A stretch of DNA of 63,549 bases, counting the filler, from Craspedostauros australis (Eukaryota): NCBI GenBank assembly GCA_030167865.1. It is 8 parts of 8 records of this genome, joined end to end, with 100 filler letters (N's around TTAATTAATTAA, not from the genome) between each part and the next. Parts side by side here need not be neighbours in the genome. Positions count along the whole stretch, not along the records: positions 26,641 to 45,256 come from JALAGF010003670.1; 7 more parts are not named here. The stretch is one strand, 5' to 3'. A program made the translations under genes and the position numbers. Under the pieces are notes generated by a model that worked only from the letters and a program-made list of their open reading frames with translations, searched no databases and had not been told where the DNA came from. This document shows, piece after piece, positions 4,714 through 63,549 of the stretch; positions within the stretch are counted from its first letter, which is position 1; each line of letters opens with the position of its first letter.

Positions 4714-5767
4714 CTGCCACGGAAAGCAAATCGTCGGCTCCTGCTCGTACTTGCAATGCAACATTGGAGGAAGAGGAGACTTGGATGTTGGCTAGATTAC
4801 CATACAACACAATCACATGTGCCCCATCATTATGTAACATATTCCGCTCTCTCTCTCTCTCCAGACGTATGCGATAGTCTCATGACGACGTATCAAGACT
4901 CTGCTATTCCTCGCATCTCCAATGCGTTGACTGTTGTTGCTCCTCGGCTCTACACTCTATCTCCCCTTGTATTGCATGATCCATACGACCTCAACGTCAA
5001 CATTCATGATTTCACAAACAGACGGATGGTGTAAGTATGCACGTTGAAAACTACAACATCTGTGTCAAACAGACAACCGTATTATTGGCCTATCAGACAT
5101 GTCGCAGAGCGACATAACACGGATCCAGAATCAGCCTGGCAATAAATCATCAACTGTGACTCGGCTCTACTCCCACCTCACAATTCGTTGCTCTCGCGGC
5201 GCCACTAACAGTGACCAACGCTGATCCAAAGGCGAAGAAAATGCATGCAGGAAGAGATGACTTTCTGCTCCTCACGTTTCATAAACTCCGACGTTGCTGC
5301 ACGCCATAAATCTCCCAATAAATCTCAAGGCCATGAAACGATGACGCAGCATGGCAAAGCGGTGCAAGTCGAATGCAACAACACCAATGAAAGCAACAGG
5401 TGCCAAGGGATCAATCAAAGACCACGACCACGCAATGCAGTTCAAATCGAACGAGCAACGCCTCTCATCGTTGTCGAGACAATCTTCTCTCTTGGACAAA
5501 TGCACGAACAAACAACGGGATTGATGAAACATGCACAACAACAATGACAACATCAACATCGACATCGACATCGACAAAACCACAACACCAACGACCACAG
5601 TCAACGCACCTTGGGCATTTCCTCATTTGGGAAGCTCATAAAAACAGAGAGCAAGCAAACAAACAATCACATCGACACACAACCGCACACGAAACACACA
5701 AACACTCCAACACACACGCAACTCAAAGCCACCAGCAGCAGCAACAACAACAACAATAATAGGAAAC

Positions 5768-6508: not shown

Positions 6509-6608
6509 NNNNNNNNNNNNNNNNNNNNNNNNNNNNNNNNNNNNNNNNNNNNTTAATTAATTAANNNNNNNNNNNNNNNNNNNNNNNNNNNNNNNNNNNN
6601 NNNNNNNN
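6509..6608. other. Artificial contig spacer N44-TTAATTAATTAA-N44 (also 17882-17981, 23400-23499, 26541-26640, 45257-45356, 59799-59898, 62175-62274)
   Basis: Identical 100-nt linker with stops in all six frames, seen 7 times. Plain N gaps at 23121-23181 and 61918-62005. Confidence 0.98.
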
Positions 6609-17870: not shown

Positions 17871-18283
17871 GGCTCTTCGTGNNNNNNNNNNNNNNNNNNN
17901 NNNNNNNNNNNNNNNNNNNNNNNNNTTAATTAATTAANNNNNNNNNNNNNNNNNNNNNNNNNNNNNNNNNNNNNNNNNNNNCTCGATTCGGTGGGCTGCT
18001 CGAACACCTACACAACGAATACCTCATGGGGTATGACAGCTACCCTGCAAACATGCCAACAGCGCTGACCTTACTCAACCACTGGTCCCACGACCCACGC
18101 AACGTAGCAGGCGCACACACACCGCGTCACACGGGCATGGCATTCGCGCAACAGAACGCAACTGACACCAAATGCGAGCGGTGCGGTCGCACCAACCACA
18201 CCACGGATGAGTGCTATGCTAAATTCCACGAGAATGGCACGGTGCTTGTCAACACCACCGGATGGCACGCCCACGACAGCAAC

Positions 18284-18316: not shown

Positions 18317-21300
18317 AACAACGAATTTGTATTCATGCAGGTCGATCATCACACACATGGGGATCTCGCCTTCAGCCAACCGTCGACACCCATTCCCAAC
18401 CGATGGGTTCTGTTGGACAACCAATCCACCGTCGACGTTTTCTCCAACCATCACCTTCTTCGCGACATTCACACCGTCAACAAAACACTCACCATCCACT
18501 GCAACGCGGGGACAGCCACCACCGATCAACAAGGCACGCTTCCTGGGTATGGACTTGTATGGTACCACCCCGAAGGAGTGGCCAATATTCTGTCTCTCAG
18601 CAAGGTGAAGTCCATGTTTCGCGTCACCTACGACAGCAACAACACCAACCAATTCGTCGTACACAAGCCAGACGGCACCACGCAGATCTTCCGCGAATCC
18701 AACAACGGACTGTACTACCTTGACACCGGAGCCATCCACAAAAACGTACTCATCAACACAGTAGCCGATAACAAGTCTAGATTCTCGTCTACCGACTAAT
18801 CTCGCGCTCAACTAGCTCGTTCAGTTCAGCAACGCATTGGTCGGCCTACCACTCGCAACTTCATTCGATATGTGCGCAACAACATGATACCAAACTGCCC
18901 GGTCACCACCAAGGACATCCGCAATGCAGAAATCATCTTCGGACCGGATGTCGGCGCGTTGAAAGGCAAAACCACACGCACAGCATCGCCAGTGGTCACA
19001 GCAAGTGTTACCAACTTGCCTGCATACATCATGAAGGAATACCAACAGGTGACTCTCTCTGCCGATATCATGAAAGTGAGCGGAATCCCATTCCTTGTTA
19101 CTGTCTCGCAGCACATCAAGTTCGGGACGGTGGCGAAATTGGACTCCGAATCGAACAAGGCGATCACCCACCAGTTCCACGAGGTGATGAAGCTGTACAA
19201 GCAGCGCGGGTTCAAAGTCAACATGGTGCTCACCGATAACCAGTTCGCTTCCATGCGAGGTGACCTGGCTGCCGATGGCATTGCAATCAACGTTACATCC
19301 CGAGACGAACACGTCCCCGCTATCGAAAGATACATCAGAACCATCAAGGAACGGACTCGCAGTACCTACAACGCCCTTCCTTTCCGCCACTATCCACCCG
19401 CACTCATCATCGAAATGGTGTACCACTCGGTGTACTGGAGCAACATGTTCCCGCACCAAGACGGCATCTCCAAACGAATGAGTCCATCGGAAATCGTGGT
19501 GGGACGCAAACTGGATTTCGCCAGTCACTGCCGCATCGAGTTTGGATTGTACGTCCAAACACATGAGCAGCACGACAACTCAATGGTACCTCGAACGGTG
19601 GGCGCACTCGCGCTACGACCATCCGGCAATGACCAAGGGGGATATCTGTTCTACAGTCTCAAGACCGGACGGCGACTACACCGACGCAGCTGGACCCCTC
19701 TGTCCATGCCAGACGACGTGATTGACCACGTCCACGCCACCGCTAAGCATTCGAGAGGCAAGAAGGACCTCACTTTTGCAGACGCCAACGACCAGGACAT
19801 CATCTCAATCATCAACGGTGACATCGATCACAGCGACTCCGAATACGATCCCGACGACGAATCCGAAGCTAGTGATGAATCACTTGATGCCAACGATGAT
19901 GCATCGGAATCAGAGAGCGAAGATAGCGATGACAGCGACAGCGATGACAGCGACAACGATCAGAGCACTGATGACAGTGATGACGACGACAGCTCCTATC
20001 ACCCTGAAGACGGCGACGAAACCACCGACAACGAGGACGCAGATCTTGACCTCGTCCCCGACATTGTGGTGGAAGGAGCCAGACAACACGAACCTGAAGC
20101 AGAAGCAGCGAATCCACCACCAGCACGAGCCAGACGCAAACCACGCATTGACTACCATCGGCTGCACCACGTGGGAAGAGATGAAGCACATGCATCCATG
20201 ACTCAAATCACATCGGAAAAATGTGAGGAGCCAACTGAATCACACAACGCGTGCGTTTTCCTGACTGAACAAATGAATTGGAAGCAAGGGTTGAAGCTGT
20301 TCCATGAGCGTGGTGAACTTGCCATTAGCAAGGAGCTACAACAGGTGCACGACATGGAAGGCTTTGAACCGAAGCATTGGCACCAACTGACAAAGGACGA
20401 AAGGGCCCAATCACTCCGGTATCTTATGTATCTCAAGGAGAAACGCACAGGCATCATCAAGGGACGTGGGTGCGCCGACGGACGCAAACAGCGCATGTAC
20501 ATGACAAAAGAAGAAACCAGCTCACCCACTGTTTCTTTGCTTGGTCTCATGCTCACTTGTACAATCGACGCCCACGAGAATCGTGATGTGGCAACTGTTG
20601 ACGTGCCCGGCGCTTTCTTGCAGACCAAGTTTGAGGAGGGGGACGTTGTGCATGTGCTCATTGAGGGCCGCATGGCGGAGCTACTCGCGAAAATCGCCCC
20701 AGACGTATACGAAGAATACGTCCGAAAGAAGCGGGGCCAATCGTCGATCTACGTGCAGCTAACCAAGGCTCTCTACGGCACTCTAAAGGCAGCCCTGCAG
20801 TGGTGGAAGGACCTAACGACTACTCTAGTCAACAACGGTTTCATCATCAACCCCTACGACTGGTGCGTCGCGAACAAAACCATCAACGGCAGTCAGTGTA
20901 CTGTTGTGTGGCATGTGGATGATCTCAAGATCTCACACAAAGATAGCACAGCCGTTGACTCCGTCATCGAGATGCTCAGCCAGGCGTATGGTCAACACAG
21001 CCCACTCACCATCAAACGAGGCAAAGTACACGACTACCTCGGTATGCGTCTTGACTACACCAACCCCAACGAGGTACAAATCGACATGGGGGAATATGTG
21101 GACGGTATTCTCGAAGGAGTGCCTGCCGACATGCACGGAAAGGCCACATCACCAGCTGCCGATCATCTCTTCGCTATCAACGACGACAATCCAACCAAAC
21201 TCAGCCAGGACACAGCCGACATGTTCCACCATATTGTCGCCAAGCTGTTGTTCCTCTGCAAGAGGGCACGACCAGACCTCCAAACAGCGGTCGCATTCCT

Positions 21301-21939
21301 GTGTACAAGAGTGAAGTCCCCAGACACAGACGACTACAAGAAGCTGGCGCGCGCAGTCAAGTTCCTCAGATCCACCCGAGACATGACGCTTACCCTGGGG
21401 GGATCATCCTTGCAGAATGTGCAATGGTGGGTGGACGGATCCTTCGGCGTACACGGAGACATGCGAAGCCACACAGGAGCCTACATGTCCGCCGGAAAGG
21501 GAACCATCTACGGGGTCTCATCCAAGCAAAAGCTCAACACAAAGAGTTCCACAGAGGCAGAACTCGTCGCCGTCGACGATGTCATGCCACAGGTGTTATG
21601 GACGCGATACTTCCTACAAGAACAGGGTGTTCACCCAGACCCCACCGTCATCCACCAAGACAACCAGAGCGCGATGCTGCTCGAAAACAATGGGAGAGGG
21701 TCCAGTGGAAAGAAAACGCGACACATTAACATGCGTTTCTTCTTTGTCAGTGACCGCGTCAACAAAGGGGAAATCACAATCCGGTACTGTCCCACCGATG
21801 ACATGATCGGTGACTTCTTTACCAAACCACTGCAGGGAGCCAAATTCAAGCGGTTCCGTGACATCATTCTCAACCGGAAGAGCAACGCCCCACGACCAGG
21901 GGTCTCATACAAACAAGCCCTGCTCGGTGCAAAGGAGTG

Positions 21940-22525
21940 TGTTGGTGCATCAGGCCAAATTGTGAGAGGCGAAGGCACGAAACCGCCAATGACCCGTGAC
22001 GTCACCCAACGGTGCGAAACAACAGCAGGCAGCCACCACCAGCACCATGCAAGCAAACCCAAGGAAAACAACAGAGACAGCAACAGCAACAGCAAAACAG
22101 ACATAAAACCAATTCAAAGTATCTGATTATACACACCCACACCAATCTCACTGTACAACATCTGGATTGACCTTCGGTTGATAGCCGGGTAGCATCCGGT
22201 GTTGAGCAGTTGCCTCAACAGGATCATCGATGTGCCCGTGACAACGAGGGACCTCCCGGGGCGAAAACGAGCTGCGACGACGGCGAAGCAAACCACGACC
22301 CTGGGCTGCACAGCCGCCAGTGCGCACCAACAGTTTCATTTCTGGCGGCACGCCCAATCTTCGCCCTCTGAGGGAAACACAAACAACGAACAGAGACACA
22401 AGCGGGAGAGAGAGGGCAGCGCTGGCAGTGAATTGCCCACAAATACTATTATTAGATATTATTAATATTATTCTAGTAAGAAGTGAATACAAGGATGGAT
22501 TCAGAAAGCAGCGACCTGTCGAACA
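21940..22525 (+). repeat. Putative 3' LTR (about 586 bp) preceded by a purine-rich tract
   Basis: AAAGGAGTG then TGTTGG at 21940; candidate end TCGAACA at 22525 gives TGTT..AACA termini. No second LTR in the window to confirm the boundaries. Confidence 0.65.
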
Positions 22526-22800: not shown

Positions 22801-23255
22801 GTACGTGCTTCGTGGGATGGTCCGTGGACCTTGCACAAACTCGGTTTTAGAGTACTCTACTCTACTCGACTCCGTTCTACTGTAGAGTACAAGGATTGTC
22901 AGCATTCACGCCAAGCAACCAGCCAATGACAATGCCCCCTCGCTTGCCCAGAAGCTTTGCAACATGCCCCCTCCGGACCGTTGGACTCAACTGCCGTCTG
23001 TGACACCCGGCAAAATGGGTCGAATTAGTCAATATGCGATGTGACTGACCCAGCCAATCAGAGCTTTCTGTATTGGCGATGACAACTGTTTTCCCGAGAA
23101 GAAAGTTCTCGATTCAAACTNNNNNNNNNNNNNNNNNNNNNNNNNNNNNNNNNNNNNNNNNNNNNNNNNNNNNNNNNNNNNAGAAACTCCGAGAATGACC
23201 CTCGCTAAGTTTGCCTTGGTTAAATCCCGAGCAATCGTGCCAACACCAAACCCTT

Positions 23256-23399: not shown

Positions 23400-23499
23400 N
23401 NNNNNNNNNNNNNNNNNNNNNNNNNNNNNNNNNNNNNNNNNNNTTAATTAATTAANNNNNNNNNNNNNNNNNNNNNNNNNNNNNNNNNNNNNNNNNNNN

Positions 23500-26480: not shown

Positions 26481-26648
26481 GGTAACCTACGATCGTGGAA
26501 GATGGTGTTGGTTGATAGTCGTCTGTTTGCTATTTCATTANNNNNNNNNNNNNNNNNNNNNNNNNNNNNNNNNNNNNNNNNNNNTTAATTAATTAANNNN
26601 NNNNNNNNNNNNNNNNNNNNNNNNNNNNNNNNNNNNNNNNCCACTTAC

Positions 26649-27336: not shown

Positions 27337-27921
27337 GGTGGTTGGAGTCTGGGTTGATAATTGACGGGATTGTTGTTGTTGTTAGTGTGGAGGCGATGAT
27401 GGCAGAGTGATGATGATGGGGATGAGTGTGGTGGGAGCGTTCTGTTCTGTTCTGTTGTGTTTCGTGAATTTGTTGAGGATGGCGCTGATGTGTGTGGTGG
27501 TGATTGTCTGGTTGTCACACGGGTGTGAACAGTATTATGTTTGAGACACGAGATGGTGATGTGTCGAGGGACTGGATGTATTGCGTGAGTACGACAGGTA
27601 TCTTTTGTTGTGTTGATTTCTTGTTTGAATTGTTGGGCATGTGACTTCTGCAGCGTGCTGCTGTGGTGGCTGGGTTATAACAAGTGTCGGTACGAGTAAA
27701 ATCATATGGAGAGTGTAGTTGTGTGAAGTGATGAAAGTTAAGTCTATTGGGTGTATTGAGAGTGCTGTAAGGCCAATCTGCGTGTGTGCGTGGGTTGTCT
27801 ACAATAATGGTTTGGAAGTGTCAGGACGAACAAGAGTCGAAGGTGGAGAGTAGAGGGGCAATGTGCATTGATTCATGTTGTTGGTTGTCAGCTGGTAGTT
27901 TGGACGTGTGTGTGTGTGTGT

Positions 27922-27965
27922 CTTTGTGTGGTTGAGTAGGAACAAAAGTTCCTTGTTTGTTTGTT
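27922..27965 (-). promoter_or_regulatory. 44-bp 3' element with AGGAAC-TTTT-GTTCCT hairpin downstream of H2A (histone stem-loop-like)
   Basis: Exact reverse complement of 30600-30643; hairpin at 27938-27953. Confidence 0.7.
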
Positions 27966-28231
27966 GTTGTTTGTATGTTTTTGTTTTCTGTTTGTTTGTG
28001 TGTCTGCAATTGTCATGGAGTTGTGGGGATGAGTGGTTGGACAGATGGATGTGATGCTGGTGGTGGTATCGGTGAAGTCATGCCACGCCATCTCATTGTA
28101 GAGTATGGTAGTGCATGGCCTTTCTCAACACCACGCATCAGTGCAATCGCAGTTGCCATCAATCAATCTATCAGTCTCCCCATGTTTCTCTCCGTCGTTG
28201 TCCTTCAATTGAGAGCGTTGACATCCAGCGC

Positions 28232-28800
28232 TTATTTGCTGCTAGAAGACTTCTTTGGCAGAAGCACTGCGTGGATGTTGGGCAGCACACCACCGCTAGC
28301 AATGGTCACTCCTCCCAGCAGTCTGTTCAGCTCCTCATCGTTCTTCACGGCCAGAGTGATGTGACGCGGCACAATACGGCTCTTCTTGTTGTCACGGGCG
28401 GCGTTGCCTGCAAGCTCAAGAATCTCGGCGCAAAGGTACTCGAGAACGGCAGCAAGGTACACTGGGGCACCTGCTCCCATTCGTGTGGCGTACTTTCCTT
28501 GACGCAAGTATCGTCCGATACGACCGACTGGGAACTGAAGTCCTGCCTTGGCAGATGCGCTTGTGGCCTTCTTTTCGCCACGGCCTCCTTTTCCTTTTCC
28601 TGTTGTTGTCATGTGTTGAATGGTTGGTGTGAGATGGAAGAGGAATGGCGATGGGTGTGAGAAGTCAGGGTGGAATGGTTGTCACAAGAGCGATGGCAGT
28701 CACGGTCACTTTCGTTGCAAACAGAACACATTCGACATCGCACACACACAAACGTGCATGTACGCACAGAACTCCAACTTCATCAACACTTACCAGACAT
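28232..28800 (-). CDS. H2A: Histone H2A, 2 exons
   Basis: 7-nt coding exon 28800-28794 (ATGTCTG|GTAAGT) plus exon 28599-28232 (CAG|GAAAA) gives [10 protein letters not shown]...[19 protein letters not shown], 124 aa. Confidence 0.97.
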
Positions 28801-29968
28801 GATTGATGTGTTTGTTTGTTGTTGTAGATTGGGTGAGTGTTTGTGAATTCGTTTGCTGTTGCAAATTGATGTTGTTTGGTTTTATGAACAGATCAGCACA
28901 GTTCGATGTCTCTGTTGTCGTGTTTGTTGCTGTTGTGGAGTGGTGGGAGTGCAACAGAGTGAAGCGACCAAAAGGAAGAAACACAGCGAACGAGAGATCA
29001 CAAGAGAGGCGAAACAAGACAGAGACAACAAGGAGACAGAAACGTCAACAACAAACGGCAAACAGAAGCGCCCGTTCCCACACGCTCTCTTGGTCAAATT
29101 CGAAACGAGCGCGTCGTGATCAGTCAGGTCACGAATGAGAACAACAAAATCGGGGTCGATTGTTCGTGATTGAACAATATCACCCCCGTAGTATATCATC
29201 ATTCGGGGATGGGCGCGCCACTTTCTCACGTATATATCTACACATCACAGTACATCATTGCTTCGCCGATTCCAACCTGTCGACATCCCACCCCGCAATA
29301 TTACAGTCACGCGCCATATCTCATCACCCCCTTTTGGAGCACTTCAGAATGGCGCGCCGATTCACAATTCGTCCACGTCGTTGGTGTCACTTGTTTGTGG
29401 TGGTCGAGTTCGAGACCACGATACTGGACGCAACTGCGAACAGAGAAATCGAAACCAAAGCGATCAGCAGCAACAGAACCAGACCAAACCCACATCGAAC
29501 AACAACAACAAGGAGACACAGACAAGAAGCACGACACCAACAACAATCGTGCCGTTGAGATCATCATCATCATCATCATCTCCATCGTTATCACCATCTC
29601 TCCCACCAACAAACACAACAAACACAACAAAACACCTTCTTGGCACTCCATCGCATCCAAGTCTTTGCCTCAAACACAAACAAGTTCATTTGTCCAAACA
29701 TAAAACCGAATTGAACAACTTTCAAATCAACAATCACCACCACTACAACCAAACAACCAAACAACTGACAAGGTAAGCAATGACACAAAGGATAACGTAA
29801 AGGAACAATACAAGCATCAGCGATACCCAATTCCCTTGGACAATTGATCGAAATCCACTTGTGCACAATGCATGATGAATCAACGCCGATTTCTCACATG
29901 TCCCTGTTATACTGTACTCCCCTTCCTTCTTCATCCAATTTCACCACATTCACGTATAACACTTGCAG

Positions 29969-30322
29969 ATGGCCAAGACTCCCTCCAAGCAATCCGCCAA
30001 GACACCAAAGAAGGCATCCACCGGATCCTCCAAGTCCAAGAAGCGTACCGAGACATACTCGTCTTACATCTACAAGGTCCTGAAGCAGGTCCACCCAGAT
30101 ACCGGAATCTCCAAGAAGGGAATGTCCATCATGAACTCCTTCATCAACGATATCTTCGAGCGTATCGCCACCGAGGCAGGAAAGCTCGCCACATACAACA
30201 AGAAGGCCACTCTGTCTTCACGAGAGATCCAGACTGCCGTCCGCCTGATGCTTCCAGGAGAGTTGGCCAAGCACGCCGTCTCTGAGGGAACCAAGGCTGT
30301 GACCAAGTTCAGCTCCAGCTAA
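29969..30322 (+). CDS. H2B: Histone H2B
   Basis: [43 protein letters not shown]. Probable 5'-UTR intron 29773-29968 (AAG|GTAAGC..TTGCAG|ATG). Confidence 0.98.
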
Positions 30323-30599
30323 GCGTTGTACCGAAGCAATGCTGTATGATCGACTGAGACTTGGATGGTGCAAGGACCAGGTGGGTGTGAACCGTGGAAC
30401 CATGAAGTAGCAGTACACGATGAGAAGCGATGTGAATTCATCGGAGCTTGTCGTGTGGCTGTTGCGCATGACATGTGTGCCATCCATCTTTGAACCAACA
30501 ATACCAACCACAGGCATCAGCAACTGATTACTGCAGTCAACTTACGGCCAAAACGAAGACAAAACAACACAGAAACAAAACAACAAACACAAACAAACA

Positions 30600-30643
30600 A
30601 ACAAACAAACAAGGAACTTTTGTTCCTACTCAACCACACAAAG
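30600..30643 (+). promoter_or_regulatory. 44-bp 3' element with AGGAAC-TTTT-GTTCCT hairpin downstream of H2B (histone stem-loop-like)
   Basis: AACAAACAAACAAGGAACTTTTGTTCCTACTCAACCACACAAAG; hairpin at 30612-30627. Confidence 0.7.
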
Positions 30644-38762: not shown

Positions 38763-39781
38763 GATTGCCTTTGTTGGATATCGCGTGGAGTTGAGTGGAG
38801 TGAAGTAGCTGTAGTACAGCGAAGCACGGCACAATAGGGTCGGGTGTTGGACTGGAGTAGTGGATTCTTCGGTTGTCTTTTGTCTGATTCCAATCTTCCT
38901 CAGATGTCGCGGTTGTCTTTGGTCGATGATTCGGTTGATGTGTGGATTGTTCTGCTTCAATCAAACCTTCGTATCCTCTCGCTCTCTGTCGTTACTCGTG
39001 CCAGTACCACACACAAGAAGTATCTCTGATGCGCTCTCTGGTCTGTCCCGTGGTTGGGTTCATCGGCGTCACAGTCCTCACGCAGTTGCCCTCTCTTGTC
39101 GTTGTTGTTTTCGCCGCCAACCGGGATTTGGCAATGACCATGGTCGGATCATCATTTGCCTTCGTCGTCGTGTGTTACTTCGTGTTGTCGTTGGCGCAAA
39201 GTGTGTCATTTCCGACTTCACCGACTGAATCCGACTATTTTTTTAATCGGATGAATCAAGGGTGCTTGGTTCTATTTTGGGGGGAGTTTCGCGCCTGGCG
39301 ATCCCACAGTTTTGAATTTTGGGGGCGGTATCAGTTAAAGTGGGTTGGCGGGTTTGAAGCAAACACGAGCGACCAAAACACGCGCCGACCTGCAAATCAC
39401 AACCAACGCGAAGAGGCCAAAAGTGCGGAAAACACCACGTGACGCGGCGCGACACAACGCATCGCACAACGCATCACACAACACATCGCACAAAACACAA
39501 CAAGAAACAGAAACGCCAATGCTGGACGTCCTCCGCGGTCATCATCATCATTCCATCCCATCTCGTTTCATCCCATCTCGTTTCGTCTTCTTTCGTCTTC
39601 CAACCACAACAACCGGCCACACTATAATAACATATAATCGTACGATTACTCTGTGTGGATTGGTGCTGAACCATACCAAGCTCCGATAGCAGCACAAGGA
39701 AGATCGCACCACAAATATTTGCAGGAGCACCAAGACGAACATTTCCCCGCCAATCAAGCACAACACTCACGAACCGCCGAA

Positions 39782-41458: not shown

Positions 41459-41779
41459 AGTTGGGCTGGGGCATTGTAACGTAAGAGCGCTTCTCGTGAG
41501 TAGCATGAGTAAAACTGTAGAGCAAAAAGGCGCATAGTAGAGTGCACGCTGGTGGAGCACTTTTGTTGTTGTTGCTGTTGTTGTTGTTGTTTGATGGAAA
41601 TGTTCATCGGATTTCGGTGCTAACGGTGTTATACTTCGTTGGTGAGTCAAGTGCTTGATCAGCTATTTTATTGTCGGAGTGCTTTCTGCTTGTTTACTCT
41701 CACCTGTTCGTGTCCATGGAGATGGTATCAGTACTGCAGTGATACGCCATGCAAGCGGACACTGAAACGAGCAAGGATG

Positions 41780-45256: not shown

Positions 45257-45356
45257 NNNNNNNNNNNNNNNNNNNNNNNNNNNNNNNNNNNNNNNNNNNN
45301 TTAATTAATTAANNNNNNNNNNNNNNNNNNNNNNNNNNNNNNNNNNNNNNNNNNNN

Positions 45357-56461: not shown

Positions 56462-58061
56462 CGTCTCTCTCTCTCTCTCTCTAGGATTGTGTTGGATCGA
56501 TGACTAGATCGTACGTATTATACTTGTGGTCGTAAGTGGAATCAATCACATGCAATACAATGCAATAGTATATTATAATAGATCGTGTAAAATGAGAATA
56601 TGTTAGGATTCTCTTCATCACATCACAGCAGGTGGTTGGATTGCTTCGCCTCTTCGTGTCTCCAATTTGGATTCGGGTCTTCTATTTCTCCTTTCTTTCT
56701 GCGAATCGCTTAAGTATGACTCCCACTGGGACACACTATGTTTGTCGGACAATAGATATATAGTATGTTCGTTGTTGCGGACATGTCTTTGTCCGAATGA
56801 CTTGGTGGACCATACCGGGAGGTATGGCGAATTGCGCAATTGAGGTTTGTGACTCAATCATTCAACTAAACAATCAGGACACACTATAAACACGCCAGAC
56901 ACAAGTGACTTGTTCGCATCAACAGAGGCCGCTCGTCACACGTTCGTACATAGCATCTCGCAGCGGAGGATGCGCCAAGAGATCAGACTTGTTGTTCGAC
57001 TCCATACATTCCTGGGAGAGAAAGAGAGAGCAGGTTCTGGACATTGGACTGGGTCCTTCGCTGCGGCATGCTCACTTTCGTGCAACGCAACATGAACGAA
57101 AATACAGACGGAGCAGCCTTTGACTTGTCACGACTTGGATCAACGCAAACGCGATGGGTGCAACTTCCGGCGCCGAAATGATGCTCGGGCGACGGAGGAG
57201 GACTTGGATCAACCGGTCAACCCCGTTAGCCTCACTCGGAAGTGCTGATAGCGACATCATGGCGCCGATCTCGGTGCTCTGGGCGTGCCGGTTCCATCTG
57301 CAGACGACGCTTCCAACGATTGCGAATGGAGTGCGACATGAGGGGGTCGTTGCGACGGTCCACAGCAGTTTGCCTGTTGCGTTCCAGAGAACTATGAACA
57401 TCTCCAACTTCGCCCGACTCGTGCTGTTCATCGCGATGTGCGCGAACAGCCATTGACGCCAACAACAAACGATATTTTGAATGTCTATCACATGTCATGT
57501 CACTTAGTGCAACCATCAACACGCATTCACCATCGTTATTGACCATAAGTGGTAATGACCGATAGAACCGTACGGAACAACTCATCGAAGGCGACTCGGC
57601 ACAACTCTTTCTGCCCACAGAAACACGGACACAAACGCACACGCAATGAGGATGTTGCTGGTTTTTGCCTCACAAAACACCTCAACCGCCCCCAACCAAC
57701 GCAACAGACCGAAAGCAAACGCACAAGCAAAATCAAAAGGGAAACAGCCACAAGTGATGCCGCCATTGCCAACGTAATCAATCATTTGGATGATGACGAC
57801 GACACGACGATGATGACGAGAGCAAGCGAACGCAACTTTTTGAGTCGTCAGGAACCAAACATCGTACTCTCCATCTTGCGTTGCGCAGAGGAATGGCGAC
57901 TTCTTACCTACAGTCGTGCCAACCAACATCATGACCAGTATCGTGGATCAGTATCGTGGATCGACAATGGTCTCCGATCATAAAAATCCACATCCATCAA
58001 CCCATCCATCGTCCATTTGACTGAACAACGACGCCAACAATCGGACACTGCTTGTTGAGGA

Positions 58062-59798: not shown

Positions 59799-59898
59799 NN
59801 NNNNNNNNNNNNNNNNNNNNNNNNNNNNNNNNNNNNNNNNNNTTAATTAATTAANNNNNNNNNNNNNNNNNNNNNNNNNNNNNNNNNNNNNNNNNNNN

Positions 59899-62174
59899 CC
59901 ACGACACGGAGAGCAACACCGAAAACCTCATGAAGGACATGGCTCTCGTGGTCGTCGACGGAGACTTGGCTGCAGGGTTCTACAACGGAACCAACAACAA
60001 CGACGACGAGGGATCGATCGAAGTGGTTGGGATCCGCAGCCCGAACGACTGCGGTTACTACGGACCGCAAGTCGACGCGGAGCGCATGATGAGCGACGAC
60101 TTGTTCTCATCTGACGAGAGCGAAGCTGACGAAGCTGAAAGCAACGAGATCGCGATGCCCGGCATCGACCTCCACGCGACGGCCTCAGCAAGGCGACCAG
60201 AGCCGATCTACAATGTGCGCCCCATTCGCTCCTACTTGGACGGGTTGATCGAGACTGCATCTCGACGCGACAACAACAACGCGTGGTGCCCACTGTGCCT
60301 GACCAAAGGGCCTTTGTTCTCGTGGTGTGTTGACTGCCCGTTCTGCCCATTCTTGATCCTCATCCCAGGAGGACCAAAGGGAGACGTGCCTGTGACACCA
60401 GCTGAGAAGCTCCAACACTGCCAAATCCTTGGAAGCGACAGCCCTCCCTATGCAGTGAGATGCTCGCTGTCCAACGTGATGCCCGCGAATGATGTTCGCT
60501 CCAACCTCTCGCTCATCTGCTACGACGCGATGGAGGCGTACCAAGGCATCGACGAGAACCGCATGGAAGTGCGGAGTGTGTACTTCATGCTGATGACCAT
60601 CGGCGTGATAGGAGCATACAACGTGGCGAGCAAAGCAATCGACATCAACGATTTGCTTGAGGAGAATCGTCTTCCGCCACTCCCGAAGAATCTGATCTCG
60701 CGTATGAGCGCCATGGCCACGGATCGCTTGCTCTGGATTCACCATCCATCGGATAACGGCGTGCGCGACGGGCACATGTTCGACGAGTTGCCTATCTACG
60801 GATACAACCATGCGCATGAGATGGCCATGGTGATCGGCGACATGTATGACGCAAGCAAACGCAAGAAGACCATCGCACCGGATCGCCACGAGGCAAACAC
60901 CTGGCTTGGCGACTCGGGGGCATCGTGCCATCTCACCAACAGCGACGAGGGCATGACTAACGTGCGCCTCGCGAGCTTCGCAGTGAAGGTGGGAAGCGGA
61001 CGCTACCTCAAAGCAACGAAGGTGGGCGACAAACGCATGAAGGTGATGCAGAAGGATGGCTCGGAGGTCATCATCATCCTCAAGGCGGTGAAGTTTGTTC
61101 CCAAGCTTTGGGTCAATCTGCTAAGCATCACAAAGGCACTCGAAAGCGGATTCGACATCAGCAACAAGGGTGTGGTGATGGCTCTCGAGAAGAACGGATT
61201 GCGCATTCGTTTCGACCGCATCATGGCGACTCACAGCGGATTCGTTTCCAGTGTGAACATGGTGGCGGTCCCAGCTGAACATGAGATGGCAAACATTGGT
61301 GTGTCCACCGGCAAGGCGGTCGACATCAATCAAATCCATAAAATGTTAGGCCACGTTGACACTTGCACTATCTCGCGCACTGCTGCGCGATACGGATGGA
61401 ATGTCATAGGACGAATGAATCCATGTGAGGATTGTGCTATTGGCAAGTCTCAACAAAAGTGTTTGTTGAAAATGTCACAGCCGAAGGCGAGCAGAGTTGG
61501 CGAACGGGTGTTCATGAATACCTCCAGTGTCCAGACGTACAGTTTTGGTCGCGGAAAATTCTGGCTCCTGATCATTGACGTCTACAGCGACTACTGCTGG
61601 AGCTACTTCATCAAAGAGAAGAGCGAAGTGGGATCGAAGATGATGTCGCTCTTGAGATGGCTCAAGGCGAATCAGAACGTGACTGTCAAGAATATCAGAT
61701 GTGACAACGCAGGCGAGAACTACAGCGCAGAGGCGCAGCTACTCAAGGAGGGATTCGGCCTGACGTTCGAATACACGGCAGCTTCAGCTCCACAGCAGAA
61801 CGGTTGCGTGGAACGAAAGTTCGCTGTGTTATACGGAAAGGTCAGGGCGATGCTCAATCAGACCCACCTACCAAAGCACCTACGAGGAAAGCTATGGGCT
61901 GAAGCAGCAAGAACAGCNNNNNNNNNNNNNNNNNNNNNNNNNNNNNNNNNNNNNNNNNNNNNNNNNNNNNNNNNNNNNNNNNNNNNNNNNNNNNNNNNNN
62001 NNNNNCTGCGTTTGTTCGGCGAGATTGGCATGGTGTTCATCGGAGGCCGAGTGATCAAGGCGAAACTGGACGATCGGTCCAAGCCTGCTTTGTTCGTCGG
62101 ATACGGACAGTCACATGCGAGCGGTGTATACCGAATGATGAACCTCGCAACGGCAAGGATCCTGATCACGCGAG
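59899..62174 (+). mobile_element. Second Ty1/copia family fragment (protease, HHCC zinc finger, integrase)
   Basis: WLGDSGASCHLT protease; HKMLGH..CEDC; IRCDNAGEN..PQQNGCVERKF; LPKHLRGKLWAEA; KLDDRS..FVGY. Confidence 0.93.
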
Positions 62175-62274
62175 NNNNNNNNNNNNNNNNNNNNNNNNNN
62201 NNNNNNNNNNNNNNNNNNTTAATTAATTAANNNNNNNNNNNNNNNNNNNNNNNNNNNNNNNNNNNNNNNNNNNN

Positions 62275-63549
62275 CCACGACACGGAGAGCAACACCGAAA
62301 ACCTCATGAAGGACATGGCTCTCGTGGTCGTCGACGGAGACTTGGCTGCAGGGTTCTACAACGGAACCAACAACAACGACGACGAGGGATCGATCGAAGT
62401 GGTTGGGATCCGCAGCCCGAACGACTGCGGTTACTACGGACCGCAAGTCGACGCGGAGCGCATGATGAGCGACGACTTGTTCTCATCTGACGAGAGCGAA
62501 GCTGACGAAGCTGAAAGCAACGAGATCGCGATGCCCGGCATCGACCTCCACGCGACGGCCTCAGCAAGGCGACCAGAGCCGATCTACAATGTGCGCCCCA
62601 TTCGCTCCTACTTGGACGGGTTGATCGAGACTGCATCTCGACGCGACAACAACAACGCGTGGTGCCCACTGTGCCTGACCAAAGGGCCTTTGTTCTCGTG
62701 GTGTGTTGACTGCCCATTCTGCCCATTCTTGATCCTCATCCCAGGAGGACCAAAGGGAGACGTGCCTGTGACTCCAGCCGAGAAGCTCCAACGCCGCCAG
62801 ATCCTTGGAAGCGACAACCCTCCCTATGCGGTGAGATGCTCGCTGTCCAACGTGATGCCCGCGAATGATGTTCGCTCCAACCTCTCGCTCATCTGCTACG
62901 ACGCGATGGAGGCATACCAAGGCATCGACGAGAACCGCATGGAAGTGCAAAGTGTGTACTTCATGCTGATGACCATCGGAGTGATCGGAGCATACGACGT
63001 GGCGAGCAAGGCAATCGACATCAACGATTTGCTTGAGGAGAATCGTCTCCCGCCACTCCCGAAGAACCTGATCTCGCGTATGAGCGCCATGGCCGCGGAT
63101 CGCCTGCTCTGGATCCACCATCCATCGGACAACGGCGTGCGCGACGGGCACATGTTCGACGAGTTGCCCATCTACGGGTACAACCATGCGCATGAACTAG
63201 CCATGGTGATCGGCGACATGTACGACGCCGGCGAACGCAAGAAGACCATCGCGCCAGATCGCCACGAGGCAAACACCTGGCTAGGCGACTCGGGGGCATC
63301 GTGCCATCTCACCAACAGCGACGAGGGCATGACCAACGTGCGCCTCGCGAGCTTCGCAGTAAAGGTGGGAAGCGGGCGCTACCTCAAAGCAACGAAGGTG
63401 GGCGACAAACGCATGAAGGTGATGCAGAAGGATGGCTCGGAGGTCATCATCATCCTCAAGGCGGTGAAGTTCGTTCCCAAGCTTTGGGTCAACCTCCTGA
63501 GCATCACGAAGGCACTCGAAAGCGGATTCGACATCAGCAACAAGGGTGT
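62275..63549 (+). mobile_element. Diverged sibling copy of the second copia family (offset 2376), runs off window end
   Basis: Same start as 59899; appears identical for about 440 bp, then scattered, mostly synonymous substitutions; open frame from ATG 62306. Confidence 0.92.

Follow-up and report, generated by a model that had tools for sequence, protein, structure and literature searches.

A 44-nt hairpin block common to the 3' flanks of an H2A-H2B gene pair of Craspedostauros australis, probably acting in RNA as a shared control signal

Canonical replication-dependent histone messages, those of H3, H4, and H1 as well, are bound by SLBP (PF15247), are cleaved as the U7 snRNP directs, and carry no poly(A) tail; they end 4-5 nucleotides past the stem, U7 snRNA pairs with a purine-rich downstream element, and organisms with this system also encode LSM10 and LSM11. 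In animals, the stem-loop lies at a median distance of 30 nucleotides (nt) past the stop codon. We analyzed a 63,549-nt stretch of DNA from the diatom Craspedostauros australis (assembly GCA_030167865.1), hereafter called the window, in which the 2 genes of a divergent H2A-H2B pair carry the same 44-nt block with the hairpin AGGAAC-UUUU-GUUCCU in their 3' flanks. The sharing of this block is real and far beyond chance, and the hairpin probably acts in RNA as a common control signal for the 2 messages.

According to the accessible part of a 2026 preprint (10.64898/2026.10.14.759114), a G-C pair at position 2 of the stem and a U at position 3 of the loop are diagnostic for SLBP binding, animal stem-loops have a stability of -7 to -10 kcal/mol, the canonical distance past the stop codon is 25-60 nt, and cleavage falls 5 nt past the stem, with a purine-rich element after it. 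The same part describes stem-loops of stramenopiles as lying "further downstream" and as showing "reduced sequence conservation," and in its screen a 6+4+6 hairpin of any sequence passes if it lies within 300 bp of the stop codon and has no more than 1 mismatch. A 2026 plant atlas (PMC13130582) reports, in the portion available, histone messages that lack poly(A) and end in a stem-loop for green algae as well as for a moss, a fern, and a cycad, with diatoms not covered there. Our literature search found no paper on SLBP, histone 3' ends, or poly(A)-less histone messages in diatoms. Outside animals and green algae, little is known about how histone messages end and how they are timed, and the block described here is a concrete candidate for such a signal.

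An identical block behind H2A and H2B

The histone pair lies on the contig JALAGF010003670.1 (26641-45256 of the window), with H2A on the minus strand and H2B on the plus strand; both were identified as histones by Pfam and are the only histone genes that Pfam annotated in the window. Copy A of the block lies behind H2A at 27922..27965 on the minus strand (hairpin at 27938-27953), and copy B lies behind H2B at 30600..30643 on the plus strand (hairpin at 30612-30627). Read directly from the window sequence, the reverse complement of copy A agrees with copy B at 44 of 44 nt. Both copies are sense to their own gene, and they begin at +267 and +278 past the stop codons of H2A and H2B, respectively, with the stems starting 279 and 290 nt past the stops. 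The 44-mer is the longest substring common to the sense-strand 3' flanks of the 2 genes (632 nt each), and when both flanks were shuffled 300 times in 40-nt blocks, which preserves local composition, the longest shared run averaged 11 nt and reached 17 nt at most. A preliminary description of this DNA, made from the sequence alone, had reported identical 44-bp elements at about 280 and 290 nt past the stops, and both the identity and the positions were borne out.

In the sense direction, the block consists of 12 A/C-rich bases, the hairpin, and a 16-base tail, ACUCAACCACACAAAG, which is nonrepetitive sequence. Downstream of the block, the H2A and H2B flanks are unalike (local alignment score of 11 against 10.7 +/- 1.3 in shuffles), so the identity breaks off sharply 16 nt past the stem. 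Upstream, the likeness is weak and gapped and fades gradually through low-complexity CAAA runs, with a gapped local alignment score of 23 against 15 +/- 2.3 in shuffles (maximum 29). A repeat finder accordingly extended the pair of copies to inverted arms of 66 nt at 27922-27987 and 30578-30643, which are 86% identical, form the longest inverted repeat of the region, and enclose 2.6 kb. The remaining flanks, which the preliminary description took to share only CAA-richness, thus have slightly more in common. Both copies in the window lie in histone flanks, and no third copy was found in the 63.5 kb, either with a 16-mer at up to 2 mismatches or with the 33-base nonrepetitive part of the block at up to 10 mismatches (0 extra matches each).

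The hairpin is both the minimum-energy and the centroid structure, at -7.9 kcal/mol. Its z scores are -3.3 and -3.4 for the 2 copies, none of 200 shuffles folded as well, and it was retained in contexts of 121, 165, and 219 nt. The 6-bp stem and 4-U loop noted earlier are thus stable on their own, and the A-rich 5' flank (AAACA) and the 3' flank ACTCA stand immediately beside them as described. Read as A1 G2...C15 U16 with the loop UUUU, the hairpin has G-C as its second stem pair and U as the first and third bases of its loop. Perfect 6+4+6 hairpins are not rare by themselves, since the window holds 20 of them against 15.5 expected; the 2 copies are the only ones among these 20 with a U4 (or A4) loop. 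From the rate of 20 per ~62,800 positions, we calculated a chance of ~1% for a perfect 6+4+6 hairpin to fall within a given 44-mer. Both diagnostic features, the G-C as second stem pair and the U as third loop base, recur in only 2 of the 38 other strand-specific perfect hairpins of the window. Because hairpins of this geometry are common, the significance of the element rests on the identity of the copies and on the hairpin falling inside the 44-nt block.

Both hairpins stand near the far end of a tract that is A/C-rich in the sense direction, and each is the sole pairing island of its tract. The tract around copy A spans 27876..28014 on the minus strand, and the tract leading into copy B spans 30538..30622 on the plus strand; the A/C-rich sequence stops within ~20-50 nt of the block. 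Sense-strand tracts of at least 86% A+C adjoin the coding regions of several unrelated genes in the window. They precede the start codons of H2A and H2B and an ATG near 5760, and another lies behind a gene of the GPKOW family (5650-5759, 29471-29773, 39452-39519, 41548-41597, and 57668-57738 are examples, among others). In their composition, such tracts look like a hallmark of this genome's untranslated regions. Their position beside genes suggests that the hairpin sits in transcribed untranslated sequence, where it would be presented on an otherwise unstructured A/C-rich stretch.

Comparison with known histone 3' stem-loops

Compared with the metazoan SLBP-bound stem-loop (Rfam RF00032, Histone3), the element shares the 6-bp stem and the 4-nt loop, as the preliminary description had pointed out, along with G-C as the second stem pair, U as the first and third loop bases, an A-rich 5' flank, an ACNCA 3' flank, and a stability of -7.9 kcal/mol that lies within the animal range. 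As in metazoans, both members of an H2A-H2B pair carry it, and it is set in unstructured A/C-rich surroundings. It differs in the stem, which is AGGAAC (purine-rich 5' strand, A-U at the bottom, and C-G at the top) in place of GGYYYU, and in its host genes, which carry predicted introns.

We used histone loci from other lineages as controls. With H2B as the guide, a scan of prokaryote assemblies yielded 60 loci encoding eukaryotic H2B, which are eukaryotic contamination of assemblies labelled bacterial or archaeal, and a scan of giant viruses yielded 9. The contaminant loci mostly have an adjacent H2A gene in a divergent pair as well as canonical stem-loops, and several are part of tandem arrays of histone repeats, on contigs 13-55 kb long. 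No diatom is among the 69 loci, and the closest H2B among them has 84% identity at most. Both flanks were available for 18 H2A-H2B pairs (8 further loci lacked 1 flank). In 7 of the 18, the longest block common to the H2A and H2B flanks was the 6+4 histone stem-loop, starting 13-47 nt past the stop; in 1 other locus (L044), the stem-loop was also common to both flanks, although a CAAA run was longer. The reasoning of the preliminary description from a block shared between flanks is therefore sound where a signal exists.

Variant stem-loops of protists and green algae were represented among the contaminants by L005 and L009. In L005 (1120-1165), the stem-loop AGCUUU/UUUA/AAAGCU has an A-U first pair and the flank ACCAA, lies at +80 past the H2B stop, and scores 29.4 bits, below the gathering score of 34 bits, and L009 has stem-loops with odd loops that RF00032 still scored; in 2 loci beyond the 7 pairs above, the stems start at +34 to +105. 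These variants show that a stem sequence may drift, even to an A-U first pair, and still keep G at position 2, a U-rich loop, and A/C-rich flanks, and the window element resembles them in this. It is unlike them in score and position, as the variants score 17.6-29.4 bits and sit within ~110 nt of the stop, and the window element does neither.

The distal, poorly conserved stem-loops reported from stramenopiles in the accessible part of the preprint (10.64898/2026.10.14.759114) appear to be the same kind of case. We calculated ~1.4 chance matches per flank under the screen described there, so the screen does not establish function. The H2B copy of the hairpin (+290 to +305) extends beyond its 300-bp limit and would be missed. 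Screens for any 6+4 hairpin within 300 bp cannot tell signal from chance, whereas identity between nonhomologous flanks can. The long 3' untranslated regions and the predicted introns of the window genes would also suit the polyadenylated histone messages known from angiosperms and Dikarya, which have neither SLBP nor a stem-loop. To our knowledge, genes of that type have no identical hairpin block common to the H2A and H2B flanks.

Readings of the element

The best reading of the element is that of a control element of histone mRNA 3' regions. In its specific form, which is possible and which we favor tentatively, it is a histone-gene-specific RNA cis-element toward the 3' end of each of the 2 messages, and a protein bound to it would set or protect that end and couple the genes. 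The H2A and H2B messages would each carry, close to their end, 1 stable 6-bp/4-nt hairpin on a stretch that is otherwise unpairable, and a hairpin-binding protein would recognize it. The protein, once bound, would mark the 3' end or shield it in the manner of the histone 3' stem-loop, with cleavage falling inside or just past the conserved 16-nt tail. The messages of the divergent pair would thereby come under one control, acting on 3'-end formation, stability, or translation and presumably tied to S phase. The sharp stop of the identity 16 nt past the stem, together with the gradual decay upstream, fits a signal that is read up to a cleavage point. Transcription of the region, a nearby RNA end, protein binding, and the link to the cell cycle are steps that we infer.

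A number of results weigh against this reading. The comparison with the Rfam histone 3' stem-loop that the preliminary description had proposed gave no match on the element: RF00032 did not match the window at its gathering score (34 bits), and with E up to 10 it was likewise without a match in 3.5 kb of sequence and in the 81 nt around the hairpin. The reporting floor of the 81-nt search was very low, since it let through an unrelated family at 10.8 bits, and on the controls the same model found 30 stem-loops in 7 loci at 17.6-41.2 bits. No Rfam family, U7 included, reached its gathering score in the window. The stem has purines at canonical pyrimidine positions, and the stop distance of 279-290 nt is 5-10 times farther than the canonical 25-60 nt. 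Downstream of the hairpin, no clear purine-rich run stands out (10-nt windows are 0.4-0.8 purine); the sequence is A/C-rich, and the sole purine run shared by the flanks is AAAG, 13-16 nt after the stem, in agreement with the earlier statement that no obvious U7-type element is visible. The motif is absent from all 69 nondiatom histone loci at up to 5 mismatches in 22. Finally, there are only 2 copies, mutually identical, and with zero covariation between them no covariance model of the element can be built. Both in its position and in its failure to match the RF00032 covariance model, the element thus departs from the family. The earlier reading as a variant histone 3' control element stands with respect to the shared, sense-oriented, and stem-loop-like build of the block, and it is weakened by the missing RF00032 match and the stop distance.

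The main rival, which we consider unlikely, is an internal regulatory hairpin in the 3' untranslated region of ordinary polyadenylated histone messages, acting on stability or translation and having no role in 3'-end formation. The long stop distance, unlike that of SLBP-type loops, speaks for it, as does our literature search, which gave no report of poly(A)-less histone messages in diatoms. It is further favored by the first UAA triplets, which lie at +492 (H2A) and +461 (H2B), ~170-200 nt past the hairpin, since the accessible part of PMC6413133 gives UAA as the most frequent near-upstream motif of poly(A) sites in diatoms and also describes diatoms as having UAA only, with an AAUAAA-type signal lacking. 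UAA is scarce throughout the window, at 3.3 per kb, so its positions in the histone flanks say little. TAA is depleted window-wide (3.2-3.3 per kb per strand against ~12 expected, as calculated from base composition), stretches free of TAA extend to 2.4 kb, and UAA is missing from 36-38% of 450-nt windows. We found no AAUAAA-like hexamer within 632 nt of the H2A and H2B stops, and the missing hexamer and the late UAA were both discarded as evidence on the 3' end, given the reported lack of the hexamer in diatoms and the rarity of UAA in the window. Against a purely internal hairpin, the abrupt stop of the identity 16 nt past the stem and the end of the A/C-rich tract ~20-50 nt off fit a nearby RNA end. 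An internal hairpin would still offer a handle on coordinated histone expression and possibly an S-phase-specific 3' cassette for diatom engineering. If the hairpin instead marks an RNA end, diatoms would count among the lineages whose histone 3' ends are special, and the animal rules of a short distance, a GGYYYU stem, and a lack of introns would be lineage habits and not requirements.

That the element is a variant of the SLBP stem-loop is a hypothesis, and we give little credence to its boldest form, in which diatoms retain a strongly diverged descendant of the SLBP/stem-loop system. Messages would then have poly(A)-less ends a few bases past AGGAAC/UUUU/GUUCCU, ~300 nt behind the stop and in intron-containing genes, and a co-evolved SLBP would read the G-C pair at position 2 and the loop uridines. 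If true, a diverged SLBP pathway would extend stem-loop control of histone messages to a major photosynthetic stramenopile lineage, and the system would be workable far from the stop codon and with a stem in which purines and pyrimidines are swapped.

We rate lower again the chance that the block is a neutral by-product of a short gene conversion or duplication between CAA-repeat-rich flanks, with the hairpin coincidental. The low-complexity CAAA runs upstream could seed such an exchange, the likeness there is weak and gapped (1 shuffle exceeded its score), and 2 copies alone give no sign of purifying selection across species. A coincidental hairpin, however, would be expected in only ~1% of such 44-mers, and here it forms the sole G/U island of an unpairable tract; moreover, the block runs 16 nt into nonrepetitive sequence, and its 2 stop offsets are nearly equal.

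Smaller still is the probability that the element works in DNA, as a palindrome AGGAAC-N4-GTTCCT that serves as the site of a dimeric factor in a downstream enhancer, a boundary, or a Pol II termination element bracketing the pair. The 16-nt core is indeed identical on both strands, and the copies bracket the histone pair symmetrically, 2.6 kb apart. The identity, however, includes 28 more bases that are not palindromic and are oriented with transcription, and the surrounding A/C bias is a property of the sense strand. We know of no factor with the half-site spacing of AGGAAC-N4-GTTCCT, which we also count against a DNA-level role.

Least probable is that the block belongs to a dispersed repeat or forms the inverted ends of a mobile element flanking or carrying the histone pair. 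The inverted 66-nt arms (86%) around 2.6 kb and the retroelement fragments on neighboring contigs of the window would suit such an origin. Against it, the window holds no further copy and both copies lie at histone flanks, no target-site duplication is visible (the arms are bordered by GTGTGTGT at one end and by CAACCAAA at the other), and exact-match scans beyond the window returned phage coding sequence only.

Histone genes, pattern scans, and make-up of the window

The H2A gene comprises exon 2 at 28232..28599 on the minus strand (Pfam), with the stop codon TAA at 28232-28234, and a putative 7-nt exon 1, ATGTCTG, at 28794..28800, placed by splice consensus. The predicted intron of 194 nt after ATGTCTG (28600-28793, minus strand) is based on the GTAAG...CAG consensus only. 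The H2B coding sequence spans 29969..30322 on the plus strand (Pfam), with the stop codon TAA at 30320-30322, and a predicted intron of 195 nt in its 5' untranslated region (29774..29968, plus strand), likewise based on the consensus only, ends at the ATG. The 2 predicted introns are near-equal in length and both lie at the extreme 5' end. The shared divergent promoter region (29212..29358) holds two GGCGCGCC octamers, at 29212-29219 and 29351-29358, 139 bp apart; these are the only 2 in the 63.5-kb window, and both fall within the H2A-H2B promoter. We take the octamers to resemble E2F-type sites, which would presumably suit S-phase control. For a neighboring antiporter gene, Bacillariophyta was the commonest phylum among the nearest protein clusters, as suits a diatom.

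Exact-pattern scans of other sequence collections gave matches that we rejected as relatives of the element. A 22-base pattern had 1 match in metagenome contigs, at 1630-1651 of L001, in coding sequence of an AT-rich contig, and a 19-base pattern matched 7 loci in viral contigs (L071-L077), of which 6 (L071-L075 and L077) have the same sequence around the match; the flank of the seventh (L076) differs. In L001 and the 6 identical viral loci, the match lies inside a conserved phage coding sequence that, by our reading, translates to GTFVPTHPEKLIG. We regard all of these as chance matches in phage genes, and their coincidence is a caution for scans with short exact patterns.

The window consists of 8 contigs joined by spacers of the form N44-TTAATTAATTAA-N44, which lie at 6509-6608, 17882-17981, 23400-23499, 26541-26640, 45257-45356, 59799-59898, and 62175-62274; further runs of N were found at 23121-23181 and 61918-62005. 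Several contigs are near-duplicates: contig 1 (1-6508) matches the beginning of contig 2 at 99.9% identity, contig 3 repeats contig 4 exactly, in reverse complement, over its first 2.8 kb, and contigs 7 and 8 agree at 96.8%. What looks like large repeats across the spacers therefore reflects redundancy of the assembly and not genome structure. Fragments of Copia-type retroelements (Pfam RVT_2, Pol_BBD, and SH3_retrovirus) were identified at 18872-22126, 59930-62230, and 62306-63547, on short contigs that neighbor the histone contig in the window.

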